Shown here piece by piece: positions 11,917 to 20,258 of a stretch of 64,000 bases of DNA. The notes under the pieces were generated by a model, which was not told where the DNA came from, did not search any database, and saw nothing but the letters and a program-made list of their open reading frames with translations. The position numbers and the translations under genes are program-made. The stretch covers positions 34,805 to 98,804 of the forward strand of contig DASZEM010000046.1 of NCBI GenBank assembly GCA_035940855.1, in the 5' to 3' direction. This DNA is from Thermoanaerobaculia bacterium (GTDB lineage: Bacteria > Acidobacteriota > Thermoanaerobaculia > Multivoradales > UBA5704). Numbering within the stretch: position 1 is the first letter of the stretch; every line of letters starts with the position of its first letter.

Positions 11917-13533
11917 TTAATGGACCTCGAGCTCCGCCCACGACCGCCCGCCGCCCGTCGTGTCCTCCACCGAGAAGACCACCCGCTGCTTGCCGGTGGG
12001 CAGCTTGAGGGTCGTCTCATAGCGGGCGTACGTCCCGGGCTTCGGCGCCTCGGGCAGGGTCAGGCGCAGCGGCAGCGTCTGGAGCCGCGCGCGGCCGTCC
12101 CCGTCGTCCAGCGAGCCCATCGAAAGGAGCGCCTGCGCCTCGTAGCCGCCTTCGACCGGCAGCGGCGTCAGCGAGCCGGCCGGGATCTCCAGGGTCACGG
12201 GCAGCTCTCTCTTCCAGAGCCCGATCCGCCGGGGCTCTCCGGCCGTCACCCGGATCCTGTCCGCGGCCGGATCCCCGCCGAAGAGCAGCAGGCTCTCCGT
12301 CTGGAGCCCCGCCTGGGTCTCGCGCGAGAAGTCCGAGAAGCCGCCCCGGGCCCGCACCCTGGTCCCCGGCCGTCGCACCTCGACGCGGATGTCGTGGCGC
12401 TTGCCGTCGGCCCGCCACTCGGGGGTGAAGCCCAGCCAGTAGTAGGTCCGCGTGTCCGCCTCGACCCGCTCGAAGGCGTTGAGCCGCGCCGAGTTGAGCA
12501 CCGCCTTGCCGCCCGTCTCTCCCGCCAGGTACTCCATGGCCTGGTGGACGCCCCGCTCCCAGTCCGCGGTGATGAACCCATGGGCAACCGACAAGGAGGC
12601 CTCGGCGCTGGCCCAACTCGACTCCGGGTCGAGCCCCTGGACGTCCACGGGGTAGATCGTGTAGCCGAGGAGGTTGGCCGTCTCCGTCACCGGCCGGAAC
12701 AGGTCCTCGGGCTCGTCGATGTCGAGGATGCTCGGAGCGTGGCGCAGGTCGGCGGTCTGGTACTGCGAGGAGATGGCCGGCCAGCCGCCGGAGAGCAGCA
12801 GCAGCACCTTGCGGCCCGGCGGCGGGGTCACGCCCCGCATGGCCGCCGAGGAGGCCGAGATCGCGCTCTCGACCTCCGTGAAGAGGCCGTATTCCACGCC
12901 GGGCTCGACGATCAGGTCGCCCGCGATCCCTTCGGACCGCCGCTCGGCCAGCCGCTGAAGCCCCCCCGTGGGGCGCTTCTGGGCCTCCTCGAAGGTGCGC
13001 CGCAGCGCGTCCCGGTCGCCGGTCCAGTTCGTCAGCAGGTCGATCCGCTTGCCGTCGAAGGCCACCACGGCCATCTGGTCGCCGGCGCCCAGCCGTCCCA
13101 GGTCGGCCAGGAGCCGCCGCAGGACCACGTCCCGCTGCGCCGCGATGGAGAAAGACTCGTCGATGAACACCAGATAGCTCGTCCCCACCTTGCCGCTCGC
13201 GGTCGCGGTCGCGGTCGCGGACACCGCGGGAGCCGGAGCGCCCGGCTCGGCCGGGGCCGCGGCGGCCGTCTCCCCGGCCGACACCTCCGTGAAGTAGTCG
13301 ACCGGCACCTCCTTGCCGTCCACCAGCAGCCGGAAGTCCGAGGCCTTGAGCCCCTGGACGCGATTACCGCGGCGGTCGGTCACCACCGCCTCCACGTTGA
13401 CCACGCGGACGTCGATCGACTCGGCATAGGAATTCTGCGCCGGGCGCGGATCGGCCGAGTCCGCCCGGACCGTCGGTGACAGCGCCAGCGCCGCCAGAGC
13501 TGGGGTGAAACAAACGAGACGGAGAAGCTTCAT
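11917..13533 (-). CDS. Secreted VWA domain protein (TIGR03436-like), paralog 3
   Basis: 538 aa; signal peptide MKLLRLVCFTPALAALALS; IDVRVVNVEAVVTDRRGNRVQGLKASDFRLLVDGKEVPVDYF; MIDAS YLVFIDESFS. Confidence 0.8.
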   Translation of the reverse strand: MKLLRLVCFTPALAALALSPTVRADSADPRPAQNSYAESIDVRVVNVEAVVTDRRGNRVQGLKASDFRLLVDGKEVPVDYFTEVSAGETAAAAPAEPGAPAPAVSATATATASGKVGTSYLVFIDESFSIAAQRDVVLRRLLADLGRLGAGDQMAVVAFDGKRIDLLTNWTGDRDALRRTFEEAQKRPTGGLQRLAERRSEGIAGDLIVEPGVEYGLFTEVESAISASSAAMRGVTPPPGRKVLLLLSGGWPAISSQYQTADLRHAPSILDIDEPEDLFRPVTETANLLGYTIYPVDVQGLDPESSWASAEASLSVAHGFITADWERGVHQAMEYLAGETGGKAVLNSARLNAFERVEADTRTYYWLGFTPEWRADGKRHDIRVEVRRPGTRVRARGGFSDFSRETQAGLQTESLLLFGGDPAADRIRVTAGEPRRIGLWKRELPVTLEIPAGSLTPLPVEGGYEAQALLSMGSLDDGDGRARLQTLPLRLTLPEAPKPGTYARYETTLKLPTGKQRVVFSVEDTTGGGRSWAELEVH

Positions 13534-13688
13534 CGTTTCCTCCTCCTGATGCCTATGGTTTCACATCCTTCAGGCGATTCAGCAAGGAGGATGCCCGGGG
13601 AAAACACCGGAAAGACACGAAAATCGTCCTGGGAAGAGGACGCCCCGGCCCCATCTCGGGAGACAGTCCTCTGGGGACAGTGGACGGC

Positions 13689-15209
13689 TCAGCGCTTGGG
13701 CCGCGGCTTGAAGTCCGCCGCGCCCCAGAGCGAGGTGCCGCTGAGGGGATCGTGGACGGTGAACACCAGCCGCTGCTCGGTGTCGCGGAGCTTGACCACG
13801 GTCTGGAAGCGGGCGTAGGTGCCGGGGCGCGGCGGCGCCTTGATTTCTACCTTGAGGCGCGAGCCCGGCAGGTCCGCCCGGCCGCCCTTGATGTCCATGG
13901 CCGCCACGGCGAGAGGGGTCTCGGCCAGGAAGCCCCTTCCCTTGGGCGTCAGGGCCAGCGACTCCACCGGCACTCCCAGGATGACGGGGATCTCGATCTG
14001 CCCGCGGCCAGCCCGGCGCGGCGCGCCGAGCTCGACGATCAACCGCCGGTCCTGCTCGGCGCCGCCGAAGATCAGCACGCTCTCCGCCTTCATGGCGTTT
14101 TCCGTGCGCCGCGAGAGGTCCGAGAAGCCCGTGCGGGCCCGCACCGTGAGGTCCGCCCGCCGGGGCTCGACCGCCACGCGATGACCCTTGTCGTCAGCCT
14201 TCCACGCCGGGGTGAAGCCGAGCCAGTAGTAGGAGCCCGTGTCCGCCACCACCTCGCGGAAGGCCTCCATTTTGGCTGAGACCGCCACCCGGCCGCCGGT
14301 CGCCCGCGCCAGCTTGTCGAGCGCCGTGACCGAGCGGGCATCCGATTGCGCCAGATCCACGGGGTAGACCGTGTAGCCGAGCCGGTTCGCGGCCTCGACC
14401 AGCGGACCATGGAGGCGCGGCGCCACGTTGAGCGACCAGGCGCCGGAAAGCATCAGCATGACCTTGCGGCCCGGCGGGGCCTCAAAGCCGCGCAGCGCGC
14501 TGGCCGCGGCCAGAGCCGTCTTGCCGAGTTGGGTGCGCGCTTCCGGGCTGATGCGCGTGGACATGGCGTCGAGGACCGCCCCGACGGTGCTCGGACCCGT
14601 GGGATCTCCATCGTCGAGGCTGGCGGCCGAGTCCAGGACCCAGTCCACGTCCGCCTGGAGCTTGCGCTGGTTGGCCAGCATCTCTCCGCCCTTGGCTGGA
14701 CGCCGGCGGGCCGTTGCGAGCGCCGCGGCGAGGACGGCATGGTCGCCCGTCCAGCCGCTCAGGACCTCGAGGTGGGAGCCGTCGAAGGCCAGCACGGCCA
14801 TCTGATCGCCGGACTTGAGCAGCGTCAGGTCACGCTCGAGCTTCTCCAGCAGCACATCGCGGGCATTGGCCAGGGAAAAAGACTCGTCGATGTAGACCAG
14901 ATAGTCCCGGCCGACCTCCTCCCCCGCCGCGACCGGCGAGGTCCCGGCGCCCGCAGTGTTAGCGGCAGTGGTCCCCTCCACCACCTCCGTGAAGTACTCG
15001 ACCGGCACCTCCTTGCCGTCCACCAGGAGACGGAAATCCCCCGCCGTCAGTCCGCGGACCCGCTGCCCCTTGGCATCCGTGACCACGGCCTCGACGTTGA
15101 CCACCCGGACGTCGATGGCTTCCTCGAAGACCTGCGGCGGCTGAGCGGCCAGAGGAGACATCCCGGACACTCCGATCGCTCCCCACAGCGCCAGTGACGA
15201 GAATTTCAT
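13689..15209 (-). CDS. Secreted VWA domain protein (TIGR03436-like), paralog 4
   Basis: 506 aa; signal peptide; IDVRVVNVEAVVTDAKGQRVRGLTAGDFRLLVDGKEVPVEYF; MIDAS YLVYIDESFS. Confidence 0.8.
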   Translation of the reverse strand: MKFSSLALWGAIGVSGMSPLAAQPPQVFEEAIDVRVVNVEAVVTDAKGQRVRGLTAGDFRLLVDGKEVPVEYFTEVVEGTTAANTAGAGTSPVAAGEEVGRDYLVYIDESFSLANARDVLLEKLERDLTLLKSGDQMAVLAFDGSHLEVLSGWTGDHAVLAAALATARRRPAKGGEMLANQRKLQADVDWVLDSAASLDDGDPTGPSTVGAVLDAMSTRISPEARTQLGKTALAAASALRGFEAPPGRKVMLMLSGAWSLNVAPRLHGPLVEAANRLGYTVYPVDLAQSDARSVTALDKLARATGGRVAVSAKMEAFREVVADTGSYYWLGFTPAWKADDKGHRVAVEPRRADLTVRARTGFSDLSRRTENAMKAESVLIFGGAEQDRRLIVELGAPRRAGRGQIEIPVILGVPVESLALTPKGRGFLAETPLAVAAMDIKGGRADLPGSRLKVEIKAPPRPGTYARFQTVVKLRDTEQRLVFTVHDPLSGTSLWGAADFKPRPKR

Positions 15210-15351
15210 ATCCCCCTCCTTGCAGAGCCTCTAAAGCTCAAAGCTTCAAGCAAGAGAGATGCCTTTCAGGAAGAGCGGAGAGTCCCAGGAGAACGCCGGG
15301 ACCGGCGTGCTCCGGAAAGGACGGGGGAAATCCTCCAAAGGAGACGGACGC

Positions 15352-15891
15352 CTACTCGACCGCGAACCGCACCCGGCCGATCGTCACGGCAGGGACGGGC
15401 TGCCGCTCCTCCTCCCCGCCTCCGGATTGGATCAGGCCCAGGGGGACGAACGTCACGGTGGCGCTCCCCGGTTGCCAGAGACCCCGCTCGTTCAAGGCGC
15501 GCGCGGTGTTCGTGACGTTGAAGCTGTGCTTGCCGCCGGTGTCGATGCCGTAGAAGGGCAGGAGGCCCACGTAGTGGAGGCTCCCCTCCCCGCCGGGCTC
15601 CGTCTTCCGGGGAAGATTCAGATAGACCTCGTAGACGATCCCCGGGTTCCGCGCGGCCGAGATGTCCTCGACGTTCAGCACCAGCCGGCGTCCGGGCGCG
15701 GTCCCGGAGAGGACGGCGGCGACCCTCGGCTGGAGGGCAGGCGGGATGCGCACCCCGGCGCGCACGGGCTTTCCCATCAACTCGACCGGAGAGTTTACCG
15801 GTTGCAGGCCGCTGGCACCGCAGCTCGCGGCGAGCAGCAGGGCGGCGAGAGGGGCGAAGAACGACAGGCGGAGGCGGGCGGGGGGGTTCAT
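15352..15891 (-). CDS. Lipoprotein homologous to the C-terminal lid domain of the adjacent tyrosinase
   Basis: Start at ATG 15891 gives lipoprotein signal MNPPARLRLSFFAPLAALLLAAS-C. Body aligns with tyrosinase residues ~395-511: LNVEDISAARNPGIVYEVYLNLP/LNIQGIQLEKQPGVYYEVYVNLP; KHSFNVTNTARAL/SHSFDITALAREL; ATVTFVPLGLI/VAVTFVPRGLV. Confidence 0.6.
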   Translation of the reverse strand: MNPPARLRLSFFAPLAALLLAASCGASGLQPVNSPVELMGKPVRAGVRIPPALQPRVAAVLSGTAPGRRLVLNVEDISAARNPGIVYEVYLNLPRKTEPGGEGSLHYVGLLPFYGIDTGGKHSFNVTNTARALNERGLWQPGSATVTFVPLGLIQSGGGEEERQPVPAVTIGRVRFAVE

Positions 15892-15954
15892 GGCGATGGC
15901 GATGCTCCTCTTCAGCCACAACACCTCCCGCCCGCCCGGGATTTCAATCCTCAC

Positions 15955-17481
15955 TCATTCTTCGCTGGTCAAGGTGATCTTGCCGACCTTGACCGGCGGC
16001 GTGGCCTGCGGCGCCGCCGCCGTCTGGCCCGTGGCTCCCACCAGGCCGCGCGGCACGAAGGTCACGGCGACGTTGCCCTCGTTCCACTGGTTCTGCGCCT
16101 TGAGCTCGCGGGCCAGCGCCGTGATGTCGAAGCTGTGGCTGCCCCCCTCCGGGCCGGCGTGGTCCGCGTGGGCCTCGAACCCGAAGAACGGCAGGTTGCC
16201 CGCGTAGTAGATGCTCTGGAAGTCGGGCGCCGCCCCCGGCGGGAGGTTGACGTAGACCTCGTAGTAGACGCCGGGCTGCTTCTCGAGCTGGATGCCCTGG
16301 ATGTTCAGGATCACCCGCGTGTCCGGTACCTCGGCGAAGGCCGGAGCGAGCCTCGGCCGGGCCTCCTGCTGGACCGGGACCGACACGCTCTCGGTCTTGC
16401 CGGTGAGCGTGACCGGCGAGGACGAGCTGGTGGCCACCAGCTCGGGCGCCCTCGGCTCCTCGGGCGCGGCTCCGGGGATCGGCGCCGGGGTTGGGAGCGG
16501 GATCGGGGTGACCGCCGGCGGATCGTCGTCGTAGCGGTAGCTCAACTGCGTCACCGTGTTGAGGACCTGGCTCCCCTTCATCGTCACCACCTGGCCGTTC
16601 TCGTCGATGAAGGTGAACGTGGTGTTCATCCACACCGAGTCGGTCGTGGGGTTCCTCCGGCCGCCGCCCTGGTCCAGCCAGCGCTTCCACAGGCGGTCGA
16701 TGTTGGCGTGGTGGGCCCAGAAGATGGGATCGCGGGCCGCCAGCGTGACGTAGCTCATGAGGCCCGTCTGGCCGCCCACGAGACCGTGGATCACGTCGTG
16801 CGGCTGCCGCTCCAGGTCCCCGTGCGGCTGCGCGAGGTGCGAGGGCGCCGTCAGCCGCTGGCCGCCGAAGCTCGCGCCGGAGCCCGTGGGCGAGGTGAAG
16901 CCGAGGTCCGTGAAGGCCGCGAAGAACGAGGTGGCCGAGGCGGGCAGCGAGGCCGTGCCCGAGTTCATGCCGGGCGCCCGGGCGGGCTCGTAGAGCGAGT
17001 TGCTCGAGCTGGCCGGCGAGCGGTACGGCGTCGGCAGGCGCCGCTGGGTCGGGTCCGTGTAGTTCCAGTACGGCAGAGCGAGGTTCGGATCACCCGAGGC
17101 CTTCCTCAGGATGCGCTCGAAATAGTAGAGATACATCCGGTGCCAGGCGAGGAAGAAGTAGCTCCCATGCTGGCACGAGTTGATGGCCGGCGGCAGCGGC
17201 GAAGGCACGGGCGAGATGCCGTGCATGTTCGCCTGATAGAGCCAGCCCGTCCGGTCGTTGGGATTCACCCGGGACCGGTCCTTCATCACCTGGACGCCCT
17301 TGCGCAGGGAGGTGATCTGGGCCGGCGTCAGCGTCGCGACGTTGCGGCGGACGAAGACCGTCGTCGTTGTCTGGGCCTCGGCGGGGGCCGCGGGCAGCAG
17401 GAAGCCCGCCATCGCCATCACCATCGTCAACAGAGCGAAGAGGCCCGCGATCCGGCGGTTGCGCGTGGAGATGCATGCCAT
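15955..17481 (-). CDS. Tyrosinase (type-3 copper polyphenol oxidase) with Tat-like signal and C-terminal lid domain
   Basis: CuA site H...HGSYFFLAWHRMY; PYWNYT; CuB site HDVIHGLVGG...FWAHHANIDRLW. Start set to ATG 17481 (RBS AAGGGAG 8 nt upstream) giving MACISTRNRRIAGLFALL. GTG 17490 is an alternative. Confidence 0.85.
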   Translation of the reverse strand: MACISTRNRRIAGLFALLTMVMAMAGFLLPAAPAEAQTTTTVFVRRNVATLTPAQITSLRKGVQVMKDRSRVNPNDRTGWLYQANMHGISPVPSPLPPAINSCQHGSYFFLAWHRMYLYYFERILRKASGDPNLALPYWNYTDPTQRRLPTPYRSPASSSNSLYEPARAPGMNSGTASLPASATSFFAAFTDLGFTSPTGSGASFGGQRLTAPSHLAQPHGDLERQPHDVIHGLVGGQTGLMSYVTLAARDPIFWAHHANIDRLWKRWLDQGGGRRNPTTDSVWMNTTFTFIDENGQVVTMKGSQVLNTVTQLSYRYDDDPPAVTPIPLPTPAPIPGAAPEEPRAPELVATSSSSPVTLTGKTESVSVPVQQEARPRLAPAFAEVPDTRVILNIQGIQLEKQPGVYYEVYVNLPPGAAPDFQSIYYAGNLPFFGFEAHADHAGPEGGSHSFDITALARELKAQNQWNEGNVAVTFVPRGLVGATGQTAAAPQATPPVKVGKITLTSEE

Positions 17482-17514
17482 GAGGGACACTCCCTTGTAA
17501 GGACAGCTTGTTTC

Positions 17515-17537
17515 GGTACTTTTTTAATTTTAGTACC
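17515..17537. promoter_or_regulatory. Perfect inverted repeat GGTACT-N11-AGTACC with A/T-only spacer in the tyrosinase promoter/5' region
   Basis: Seen in sequence ~35-55 bp upstream of the tyrosinase start. No T-run follows on either strand, so an operator is more likely than a terminator. Confidence 0.3.
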
Positions 17538-17817
17538 AGCTGACAAGAGTTGCAAGTCACGGGCGTGGCCCACACCTACAGGGCGGCCGAGGCGCTCAAG
17601 AAGACGTCGTTCCCTGTCTGATGGTGGGCTCGGCGGTGGCGGGAGCCATCTCCCTGGCGGCCAGCGTGAGATGGATGGCGCCGCATGGGGGGGTCTTCGT
17701 CCTGCTGATCCCCCATGCGGTCCAGAGCCTGGGTCTTTACGTCGCGGCCATCGTGGCAGGAACCCTGGTCACGGCGGCCGCGCTCTACCTGGTCAAGCGT
17801 CCGGTCGTTTCGGCAGC

Positions 17818-18207
17818 CTAGTAGCGGCCGCCACCACCGCCGCCGCCGTAACCACCACCGCGGCCGCCACCGCCGCCGCCGCCGTAGCCACCGCCGCGGC
17901 CGCCGCCACCCCCGCCACCGTAGCCGCCCCGGCCCCGTCCGCCGCCGCCGCCGCCCTCTTCCCGGGGACGAGCCTCGTTGACGGTGAGGGTCCGGCCCTC
18001 CATCTCCTTGCCGTTGAGCGCGGCGATGGCCGCGCGCGCGTCCTGATCGCTCTCCATCTCCACGAAGCCGAAGCCCTTGGAGCGCCCGGTGTCACGATCC
18101 ATGATCACCTGGGCGGATTGAACGGTGCCGTGGGCGGCGAACAGATCCTCCAGGTCGCTGTCCCTGACGCTGTAAGACAAGTTCCCTACGTAAAGCTTCT
18201 TGGCCAT
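17818..18207 (-). CDS. Glycine-rich RNA-binding protein (single RRM)
   Basis: Start MAKKLYVGNLSY (RNP2); RNP1 KGFGFVEM; C-terminal (G)nR(G)nY repeats. Long 5' leader (18208-18430) upstream. Confidence 0.85.
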   Translation of the reverse strand: MAKKLYVGNLSYSVRDSDLEDLFAAHGTVQSAQVIMDRDTGRSKGFGFVEMESDQDARAAIAALNGKEMEGRTLTVNEARPREEGGGGGGRGRGGYGGGGGGGRGGGYGGGGGGGRGGGYGGGGGGGRY

Positions 18208-18549
18208 GCGAGACTCCTCCGTTGACCTTCGTCCGATTGCGATTGCCTGACTTCTGTTGTTCTTCTGCGGGAGCGTGCGGGGTATCCGAGATCGATGCTT
18301 TCCGAAGGTCGTCCGATGCCGGAGTCTTTCACGCCCAGTCCACTCGAAGGGAGGGCAGCCGCCCTCCGCATTCCTGATCTTAGCATCCTCGTAGCGGAAG
18401 AGAGCAAACTTGTTCTGGAAAATCTTCAATCCCGGCTTCGCCCCCTCCCCAGGGGGTCAGGACCGCCCGGGCGCTGGTGCCGTCCACCAGCGTCCAAACC
18501 ACCCCAGCCCCGGGGAGCTTGACCGCCTCGCCCAGACCGCGGCGCGGGC

Positions 18550-19175: not shown

Positions 19176-19592
19176 TTATCGAATAAACCGGATCGGGCAG
19201 GCCCCGGCCTTGGCTATAGCATCGAGTTCGTGGTGGTCGCTGGTAACCAGAATGCCCTCTTCCCGGATCGCCAGGGCAAGCGCAAAGCAGTCGGCCAGCG
19301 AGACCCTCCGCCACTCGGCCTTCAGCTTGCCGGCGACCTTCCAGAGATCCGAGGGCAGCGCGTCGAGAAGCTCAAGACCATACTCAGCAAAGAGCTTCTC
19401 CAGGGTGTCCGCGTCTTCGGTGTTCCCACGGCGACAGAGGTCGTAGTAAACCTCGCAGGCACTGACCGCGTTGATAAGACAGCTGTTTGTGGGGTCTTGC
19501 AGGATCTCCTCCACCACTTCGGCGCCCGGCTCGTCTTCCAGAAGAGCGATCAAGGCACAGGCATCGAAGACGAAGACAGGCTCAGCGGCCAA
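19176..19592 (-). CDS. vapC: PIN-domain ribonuclease toxin (VapC-like)
   Basis: 138 aa; N-terminal VFVFDACALIALLEDEPG (PIN acidic residue D); ...ILVTSDHHELDAI at the C-terminus; 11-nt overlap with the upstream antitoxin ORF. Confidence 0.75.
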   Translation of the reverse strand: MAAEPVFVFDACALIALLEDEPGAEVVEEILQDPTNSCLINAVSACEVYYDLCRRGNTEDADTLEKLFAEYGLELLDALPSDLWKVAGKLKAEWRRVSLADCFALALAIREEGILVTSDHHELDAIAKAGACPIRFIR

Positions 19593-19926
19593 ACTTCCGC
19601 TCCTCGATTTCGATTTCCTCGCGCTTGCGCCGGGCGAACTCCTCGCTCCCGGAAGTCAACCCGCGGCCAGCCCCACGCAAACGCCGTAGACGCGTCCGGC
19701 GCTCTTCCGGTGCCAGCTCCCGGAAGGGTCTGGGATCCTGGGCCAACTCCGAGGCCAGAGCCGCGAGACGGCCACGGCCTTGCGGAGCCTCAGCCTGTCC
19801 CGCAGCCTCTGCTTCCGGCGGCACGAGCACGATCAACTCTACCGGCCCGGATGGAATCGTGGCCGGGAACTCGATGGTCGCACGGTGATCTTCCGGAACT
19901 ACGATATGAATTCTGTGTGCCTGCAT
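19582..19926 (-). CDS. Putative antitoxin partner of VapC (VapB-like)
   Basis: Start chosen at ATG 19926 (MQAHRIHIVVPEDHRATIEFPA..., RBS AAGGGAG 10 nt upstream). GTG 19980 and ATG 19962 are alternatives. Small, acidic-basic C-terminus; translationally coupled to the toxin. Confidence 0.5.
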   Translation of the reverse strand: MQAHRIHIVVPEDHRATIEFPATIPSGPVELIVLVPPEAEAAGQAEAPQGRGRLAALASELAQDPRPFRELAPEERRTRLRRLRGAGRGLTSGSEEFARRKREEIEIEERKFGR

Positions 19927-20258
19927 CGCCGGTGCTCTCCCTTCGTAGGTGAAATCTACCATAGGTGGCAGCTTCGTCACCCGGAGTGGCGAGGTCTTCG
20001 CCGGTGCGAATGGAGCTCTGCCGCCCGCGGTAATCGGCGGGACCGGGAGGTCGCCGGCCCAGAGCGCACCTCCCGGGTCATCGTATCGGTTGTCAAAGAG
20101 CCGGGCTCCGGCCAGCCTGCGCCGGACCGGCGGGTCCGTTCGTTGGATTCCCCGGTGATTTGTCTCATTTCGACCCGCGGGATTAGATTACGGGAGAGCC
20201 GTTGATTCTGTCTAGATCCCAAAGGTTGTCATTTGGCTCTGGCAAGGGTCATCTCCGG

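Follow-up and report, generated by a model that had tools for sequence, protein, structure and literature searches.

A Predicted Lipoprotein Homologous to the C-Terminal Lid of a Tyrosinase Is Encoded Directly Downstream of the Enzyme in a Bacterial Genome

Results

Genes and Signals at the Tyrosinase Locus

The DNA analyzed here is a stretch of 64,000 nucleotides (nt) from a Thermoanaerobaculia bacterium (GenBank assembly GCA_035940855.1, contig DASZEM010000046.1, positions 34,805 to 98,804), called the window below, with a G+C content of about 70%. On its minus strand, the gene of a tyrosinase ending in a C-terminal lid is followed by the gene of a small predicted lipoprotein, and the whole mature body of this lipoprotein is a paralog of the tyrosinase lid by sequence, Pfam domain and fold. 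Tyrosinase latency has so far been explained by two unrelated devices, i.e., covalent C-terminal lids in plants, fungi and some bacteria, and the MelC1 caddie in Streptomyces. An earlier note on this DNA, made from the letters alone, had described the lipoprotein as a stand-alone paralog of the lid that may serve the enzyme in trans as a cap, chaperone or inhibitor. The gene pair comprises the following features, in window positions and lengths in amino acids (aa) or nt:

17527-17555, minus strand: sigma-70-like promoter match 5' of the tyrosinase gene (TTGCAA-17-TAAAAT)
15955-17481, minus strand: coding sequence of the pro-tyrosinase, ATG start, 508 aa, TGA stop at 15955-15957
15892-15954, minus strand: spacer between the tyrosinase and lipoprotein genes, 63 nt
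15352-15891, minus strand: coding sequence of the stand-alone lid lipoprotein, ATG start, 179 aa plus stop

Both open reading frames (ORFs) can be extended, that of the tyrosinase to a GTG at 17490 and that of the lipoprotein to a GTG at 15954, which is the start of the JGI gene call (200 aa). The lipoprotein ORF lies in the frame of the tyrosinase, with one TGA between the two. In a scan of positions 15100-17900, TTGCAA-17-TAAAAT was the sole promoter-like site (0.1 expected in shuffled sequences) and is a consensus match only. The same scan revealed neither a promoter-like site nor a terminator-like hairpin between the two genes, and GAGGAG is located 13 nt 5' of the lipoprotein ATG. The single promoter-like site, the lack of a terminator and the GAGGAG motif weakly suggest that the two genes may form a two-gene operon.

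The Tyrosinase and Its Covalent Lid

The tyrosinase consists of the following parts:

17371-17481, minus strand: twin-arginine-containing signal peptide, residues 1-37 (MACISTRNRRIAGLF...PAEA, followed by Q), as read from the sequence
16663-17238, minus strand: type-3 copper core, Pfam Tyrosinase, residues 82-273, with the copper ligands in invariant columns
16513-16635, minus strand: PPO1_DWL middle domain, residues 283-323 (Pfam E 3.5e-10)
16435-16512, minus strand: Pro-rich linker from core to lid, residues 324-349, sequence PPAVTPIPLPTPAPIPGAAPEEPRAPE
15958-16434, minus strand: fused (cis) lid, DUF7868, residues 350-508 (Pfam E 3.8e-20, 72.9 bits)

Pfam matches in the tyrosinase were Tyrosinase (residues 82-273, E 1e-34), PPO1_DWL, DUF7868 and, weakly, PPO1_KFDV. 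The copper ligands are His87, His105 and His114 for CuA, and His228, His232 and His257 for CuB. All six, together with the Cys103-x-His105 pair, were invariant in an alignment of 36 relatives, which bears out the CuA/CuB sites recognized in the earlier note. All features of a lid-bearing type-3 tyrosinase (PF00264) are present, i.e., the six His, the Cys-x-His pair, the DWL domain and a lid at the C-terminus. The presence of the lid had also been noted before, but it comprises about 160 aa (residues 350-508) rather than the ~115 aa claimed. The enzyme belongs to a large family, with 2385 matches to the Tyrosinase-DWL-DUF7868 architecture at E <= 1e-5, and is an ordinary representative of it.

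The AlphaFold2 model of the tyrosinase had a predicted local distance difference test (pLDDT) score of 85.2. Its best match in the PDB was HcTyr1 of Hahella (8B74; template modelling score 0.79), which it matched over the full length including the lid, and the next-ranked matches were latent plant polyphenol oxidases (PPOs) and a Ralstonia tyrosinase. The classification as a latent, plant-PPO-like bacterial enzyme with a covalent lid is thereby supported. The lid of HcTyr1 plugs the active site with Phe397; it undergoes slow self-cleavage, and without it the enzyme is about 10-fold more active (PMC11609597). The V. spinosum tyrosinase (vsTyr), which is synthesized behind a twin-arginine translocation (Tat) signal, has the equivalent Phe453 in its C-terminal extension (PMC10526336). 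By analogy with these two enzymes, the lid is probably released at the Pro-rich linker (residues 324-349); pLDDT was below 50 at linker residues 327-339, in keeping with a tether that can be cleaved.

Signal types were assigned from motif and conservation. In the tyrosinase, the earlier note had seen a Tat-like signal, and the twin arginine is indeed there, but the canonical motif is not: in TRNRRIAGLF, RR is present and F-L is absent relative to the Tat consensus S/T-R-R-x-F-L-K. Many relatives carry a canonical TRREFL, NRRDFL or SRRQFL at the equivalent position, and the search for NCBIfam Tat-signal matches in the tyrosinase returned none. Tat export of the window tyrosinase is plausible but not proven.

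The Lipoprotein as a Separate Copy of the Lid

The small protein consists of two parts:

15820-15891, minus strand: signal peptide of the lipoprotein type, lipobox L-A-A-S-C, with the codon of Cys24 at 15820-15822
15355-15795, minus strand: stand-alone (trans) lid domain, residues 33-179, delimited by BLASTP against the fused lid

Its N-terminus reads MNPPARLRLSFFAPLAALLLAAS-C24 and lacks a twin arginine. By lipobox pattern and conservation, the small protein is a lipoprotein with Cys24 as the predicted site of lipid attachment. BLASTP aligned tyrosinase residues 357-510 (in 511-aa numbering) with lipoprotein residues 33-179, i.e., the whole mature small protein; over the 156 aa aligned (E 9e-28), identity was 36% and positives amounted to 53%. 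The earlier note had claimed this paralogy over the whole body of the LAAS-C lipoprotein and had allowed for it to dissolve into less than 20% identity with no shared fold; the relation turned out to be highly significant. DUF7868 (PF25271) was the sole Pfam domain of the small protein, with 41.8 bits against a cut-off of 25, and residues 33-174 covered positions 9-153 of the 158 in the profile.

The fold agrees with the sequence. The AlphaFold2 model of the lipoprotein (pLDDT 84.3) shows its secondary structure elements in the same order as the fused lid (E-E-H-E-E-E-E-H-E-E). In a Foldseek search against the PDB, the best 24 matches were all C-terminal lids of tyrosinases or PPOs (E 3e-6 to 2e-4), headed by two structures of the apple MdPPO1 lid crystallized alone (6ELT and 6ELV) and including 7XIO (Ralstonia) and 8B74; farther matches were generic beta-sandwiches. 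By profile, predicted beta-sandwich fold and plug position (see below), the lipoprotein belongs to the DUF7868/PPO shielding-domain superfamily.

No relation to MelC1 was detected. At E <= 0.1, no other Pfam match, MelC1 included, was found in the lipoprotein, and no MelC1 chain was among the listed Foldseek matches. The statement in the earlier note that no caddie or MelC1-like gene is present holds for Pfam within +/-10 kb of the pair, where no MelC1 match was found; the remaining window was not scanned for MelC1.

The Plug Position and the Loop behind It

The residue that plugs the active site in HcTyr1 was located in an alignment based on a profile of the two window lid copies, in which HcTyr1 GL-F-GL corresponds to PF-F-GF in the tyrosinase and to PF-Y-GI in the lipoprotein:

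16183-16185, minus strand: codon of Phe433, predicted active-site plug of the fused lid (NLPF-F-GFE), aligned with HcTyr1 Phe397
15550-15552, minus strand: codon of Tyr114, which takes the plug position in the stand-alone lid (LLPF-Y-GID) and aligns with Phe433 and with HcTyr1 Phe397

Phe433 and Tyr114 are thus the predicted plug positions, and by homology Phe433 is expected to lie close to the copper site. The plug was Phe in all 78 fused lids examined and aromatic (Phe or Tyr) in all 17 stand-alone lids, so that the aromatic plug, which the earlier note had suggested checking, is kept in the stand-alone copy. Tyr at this position was confined to stand-alone copies. Among the lipoprotein partners of lid-bearing tyrosinases, 8 of 12 had Tyr and 4 of 12 had Phe (Fisher p 6e-9 versus fused lids, not corrected for phylogeny). 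The lids of the split loci described in the next section had Phe.

This recurrent change from Phe to Tyr recalls the Streptomyces caddie, whose Tyr98 is oxidized by the enzyme before the caddie leaves (PMC11608171; PMC10526336). If the analogy is taken literally, the lipoprotein would be a homologous "caddie", a lid that escaped repeatedly from the tyrosinase and turned into a membrane-anchored cap able to release itself, and Tyr114 would be a pseudo-substrate that is oxidized by the enzyme to 3,4-dihydroxyphenylalanine (DOPA) or quinone on the arrival of O2 at the copper site, thereby freeing the enzyme or cross-linking it to the envelope. This variant is considered unlikely.

The loop behind the plug differs between the two kinds of lid. 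Directly after Phe433, the tyrosinase has a His-rich loop of low model confidence, EAHADHAG (residues 438-442; ~16156-16170, minus strand). A loop of this type is kept in most fused lids and is absent from the stand-alone copy of the window; it may have a role in copper handling. Within 14 residues after the plug, one to three His were present in 64 of 78 fused lids, including all 13 that have a partner, but His occurred there in only 5 of 17 stand-alone lids. In the direct comparison, 2 of 13 lipoprotein partners had such a His as against 13 of 13 of their fused counterparts. Near the plug, stand-alone lids mostly lack Met and Cys as well.

These counts bear on the idea that the lipoprotein is a MelC1-like maturation factor, i.e., a copper-delivering chaperone for the apo-tyrosinase that is needed for folding or secretion. 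Such a role would suit a small partner, possibly encoded in the same operon, with Tyr at the plug as in the Streptomyces caddie (Tyr98/Tyr92; PMC10526336), and the vsTyr lid mutant F453A is under-loaded with copper (PMC10526336), so lids can influence metallation. However, the scarcity of His, Met and Cys near the plug of the stand-alone lids, the lack of MelC1 homology and the signal peptide and lid that the tyrosinase has of its own speak against it. Moreover, since the tyrosinase and the lipoprotein, the latter without a twin arginine, use different export signals, the two can meet only beyond the cytoplasmic membrane. Together with the missing MelC1 homology and the lost His loop, this argues against copper loading in the cytoplasm and hitch-hiking export in the manner of MelC1. 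A maturation factor is therefore judged highly doubtful, and among the roles offered in the earlier note, that of a chaperone is the least supported, given the different export signals and the stand-alone copy devoid of the His loop of fused lids.

Recurrence of the Gene Pair in Other Genomes

Relatives were found by a full HMMER scan with the two-copy lid profile. One genome per species was scanned with the tyrosinase alignment, and the flanks were searched with hidden Markov models made for this analysis. Stand-alone lids were accepted if they had a signal peptide or lay in a complete locus, and short truncated tyrosinases were left out.

The survey of tyrosinase loci proposed in the earlier note showed that the pair recurs: adjacent genes on the same strand, in either order and among differing neighbours, were found at at least 14 further loci (L002, L004, L006, L017/L019, L047, L049, L050, L053, L054, L056, L058, L077, L094 and L095). 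Among the closest relatives of the tyrosinase, the partner is located upstream in L002 and downstream in L004 and L006, with a lipobox in all three and in unrelated surroundings. The loci L017/L019, L047, L049, L050, L053, L054, L056 and L058 all belong to Thermoanaerobaculia or other Acidobacteriota, while L077 (Bacteroidota) is a weak case. A Cys in lipobox context was present in nearly all partners of lid-bearing tyrosinases. Starting from the lids instead, all eight stand-alone lids that were looked up adjoin a tyrosinase gene. A conserved wider gene cluster was rejected because the neighbours differ among loci.

A second type of locus separates the lid altogether. At the split loci L008-L012, L093 and L096, the tyrosinase stops after the DWL domain and has no lid, and a DUF7868 protein is encoded directly downstream on the same strand. 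These separate lids have an ordinary signal peptide and no lipobox Cys, and about 20 more secreted lids of this type (~190 aa) were found on short contigs. Since the tyrosinase of a split locus lacks its own lid, the lid function, if kept, must act from a second polypeptide. The proposal of a cap that acts in trans is strengthened by these loci, where the lid exists only as a separate secreted protein.

Linkage and plug together also bear on a further explanation, namely that the duplicated lid took on a job unrelated to the active site, as a surface scaffold or by binding phenolics, the cis lid after its release or a different face of the enzyme, and is linked to the tyrosinase gene by co-regulation only. 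Beta-sandwich domains are easily re-used, as the generic beta-sandwiches among the farther Foldseek matches illustrate, and the stand-alone copies evolve fairly fast and lack the His loop present behind the plug of most fused lids. Yet the plug loop has kept its aromatic residue in every stand-alone lid although no structural role is obvious for this loop, each lid looked up was linked to a tyrosinase, and the split loci leave the enzyme with a separate lid only. An unrelated job is accordingly regarded as improbable.

In one Thermoanaerobaculia clade (L017, L049, L050, L053, L054 and L056), the tyrosinase N-terminus, too, bears a lipobox, here behind a twin arginine (e.g., MRKRRARRSWLWAAVPFAVLLLAG-C), together with a tether rich in Gly, Pro and Thr, and each of these tyrosinases is paired with a lipoprotein lid. 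They are candidate Tat-exported lipoproteins, as judged from their N-termini. Because of the lipobox, both partners would be anchored side by side, which fits a complex located at the envelope.

Other lid-like ORFs were met in the same search. In a metagenome-assembled genome of Dongiaceae (L085, 4870-5568), the ORF of a tyrosinase core extends to 4861, and 9 nt further on begins a lid ORF that lacks a signal, representing either a frameshifted fused gene or another split type. The proteins P0138, P0152, P0165, P0167, P0177, P0221 and P0222 are signal-less DUF7868 proteins of ~180 aa that begin about 10 residues ahead of a "PELVGA(T/S)E" motif; they could be stand-alone lids of the cytoplasm or else fragments of tyrosinases that were called wrongly.

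Selection on Stand-Alone Lids and Their Origin

In three pairs of related genomes, the ratio of nonsynonymous to synonymous substitution rates (dN/dS) was 0.19-0.46 for the stand-alone lid, 0.14-0.55 for the fused lid and 0.13-0.59 for the core. The stand-alone lid is under purifying selection in a range like that of the tyrosinase, and its ORF was intact at every locus. As to the fate of the downstream ORF, which the earlier note had left to conservation or expression, conservation, purifying selection and recurrent linkage to tyrosinases were found.

These values were weighed against the idea that the small ORF is not an independent gene, but either what a tandem duplication left behind to decay or an additional lid attached to the tyrosinase by read-through of the single in-frame TGA. 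One TGA between ORFs of the same frame, as seen in the window and likewise in L006 and L054, would suit it. However, start codon, signal peptide and lipobox are all present in the small gene itself. In addition, the partner is located upstream of the tyrosinase at many loci, and its frame is a different one in L004, L017 and L019; it was in frame in 3 of 6 downstream cases, close to the chance value of 1 in 3. The probability left for either version is therefore very small. A pseudogene or duplication remnant was rejected owing to signal peptide, conservation and dN/dS, and a read-through fusion because partners are often upstream or out of frame.

Neighbour-joining trees were calculated from about 150 columns with bootstrapping (n = 100). 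The stand-alone lids did not form one clade. The bootstrap values for grouping with the fused lid of the same locus were 100% for L054, 74% for L058 and 50% for the window, and the split lids grouped with the fused lid of L020 (99%). A single ancient orthologous family of stand-alone lids was not supported, as the window copy joined the partners of L002, L004 and L006 in 1 of 100 bootstraps. Since the stand-alone lids cluster by lineage with the respective fused lid, separate lids arose several times and were kept. With the window lipoprotein alone as query, a word-indexed search returned only the query itself.

Genes Surrounding the Pair

Directly downstream of the pair, the window carries a run of tandem paralogous TIGR03436 "acidobact_VWFA" genes (11917-15209, minus strand). 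The run starts with proteins of 506 aa (13689-15209) and 538 aa (11917-13533), followed by 557 and 588 aa (JGI calls, L001). The proteins have signal peptides and no Pfam match on record, and they are not located beside the pair at other loci. These downstream genes, and a Thermoanaerobaculia protein among the best matches, indicate that the window probably stems from the Thermoanaerobaculia/Acidobacteriota group.

Just upstream of the tyrosinase promoter region, an ORF of the RNA recognition motif type (17818-18429, minus strand) encodes an RNA-binding protein with a long Gly/Arg-rich tail (MAKKLYVGNLSYS...GGGRGGGYGGG). Further on, a PIN-domain (VapC-like) ORF (19176-19592, minus strand) overlaps by a few bases with a small upstream ORF (19582-19980). 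With the PIN domain taken from the JGI/Pfam call (L001), the two are a probable toxin-antitoxin pair.

Discussion

The earlier suggestion of a cap that acts in trans, like MelC1 in role and unrelated to it in sequence, is consistent with all findings presented here. The preferred reading is that the lipoprotein is a membrane-anchored lid acting in trans on the tyrosinase. First, a latent pro-tyrosinase would be made from the first gene and exported through its own RR-containing signal peptide, with Phe433 of the covalent lid, on its flexible Pro-rich linker, plugging the active site in cis. Second, the lipoprotein made from the second gene would be exported separately and anchored to the membrane through Cys24, keeping the plug loop with Tyr114. 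Third, the cis lid would be cut off or would swing away outside the cytoplasm, and the anchored lid would then dock through its plug loop on the same face of the copper core. Docking would hold the enzyme at the envelope and re-cap it, limiting uncontrolled quinone production. Docking, release of the cis lid and the effects on activity and localization are deduced from the comparisons above, and the chances that the lipoprotein acts in this way are put at about even.

Several observations weigh against a membrane-anchored lid of this kind. A covalent lid has a large advantage in effective concentration, so that docking in trans needs prior removal of the cis lid, and such removal is known for relatives but not for the window tyrosinase. 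Values of dN/dS are low to a moderate degree only. The window copy has no close ortholog, and bootstrap support for its grouping with the fused lid next to it is no more than 50%. Finally, Ala occupies position -3 of the lipobox, where Leu is the commonest residue.

The lipoprotein shares family (DUF7868/weak PPO1_KFDV) and fold with the covalent lids of HcTyr1 (8B74), vsTyr and plant PPOs with a PPO1_KFDV domain such as apple MdPPO1 (6ELS). The "YEVY(L/V)NLP" strand of the window lids is the equivalent of the plant KFDV motif, and the aromatic plug lies in the same loop (Phe397 in HcTyr1, Phe453 in vsTyr, Tyr114 in the lipoprotein). Covalent lids, however, are part of the tyrosinase chain and are removed by proteolysis or self-cleavage, whereas the window lipoprotein has its own gene and its own signal and is additional to a fused lid. 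The C-terminal domain of MdPPO1 alone (6ELV "Csole", 6ELT "Ccleaved") is evidence that a PPO lid can fold stably on its own. These are a laboratory construct or a cleavage product of a plant enzyme and have no lipid anchor, while the window lid is a natural separate gene. The split loci have a natural separate DUF7868 lid as in the window, but their tyrosinase lacks a fused lid, and the lid protein, with an ordinary signal peptide and no lipobox Cys, is not an extra, lipid-anchored copy.

In the MelC1/MelC2 system, the MelC1 caddie (PF06236), a small protein of the same operon, caps the active site from a second polypeptide by inserting a Tyr (Tyr98/Tyr92), which is the role proposed here. Sequence and fold of MelC1 and the window lipoprotein are unrelated. 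MelC1 bears the Tat export signal and supplies copper to a tyrosinase without signal peptide or lid, both of which the window tyrosinase has. Unlike MelC1, the lipoprotein is predicted to be membrane-anchored and has few metal-binding residues near the plug. By homology and signal arrangement it is not a MelC1 caddie, but it may work like one. Searches for DUF7868, for PF12143/DUF_B2219 and for tyrosinase, lid domain and lipoprotein in combination found no paper on such a lid partner within an incomplete coverage of the literature; covalent lids and the MelC1 caddie are the only devices dealt with in reviews and recent structural papers (PMC11609597, PMC11608171, PMC10526336).

A separate, lipid-anchored homolog of the covalent lid would represent a third arrangement, linking cis lids and the caddie. 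Evidently, lids can function, or at any rate be maintained, as proteins in their own right, and this offers a route for the evolution of caddie-like partners. As separable units, they would be a handy switch for biocatalytic tyrosinases. The pair likewise suggests how an extracellular phenol oxidase could be tethered and gated. If Tyr114 were indeed a pseudo-substrate, the pair would work as an oxygen-triggered switch for the oxidation of phenols by bacteria living in soils and sediments poor in oxygen, and would be an extant intermediate linking cis lids with trans caddies. Bacterial tyrosinases of wetlands and peat have been discussed as regulators of carbon release under the "latch" idea (PMC11609597, PMC9454253), and an oxygen- or protease-dependent gate in Acidobacteriota would bear on this question.

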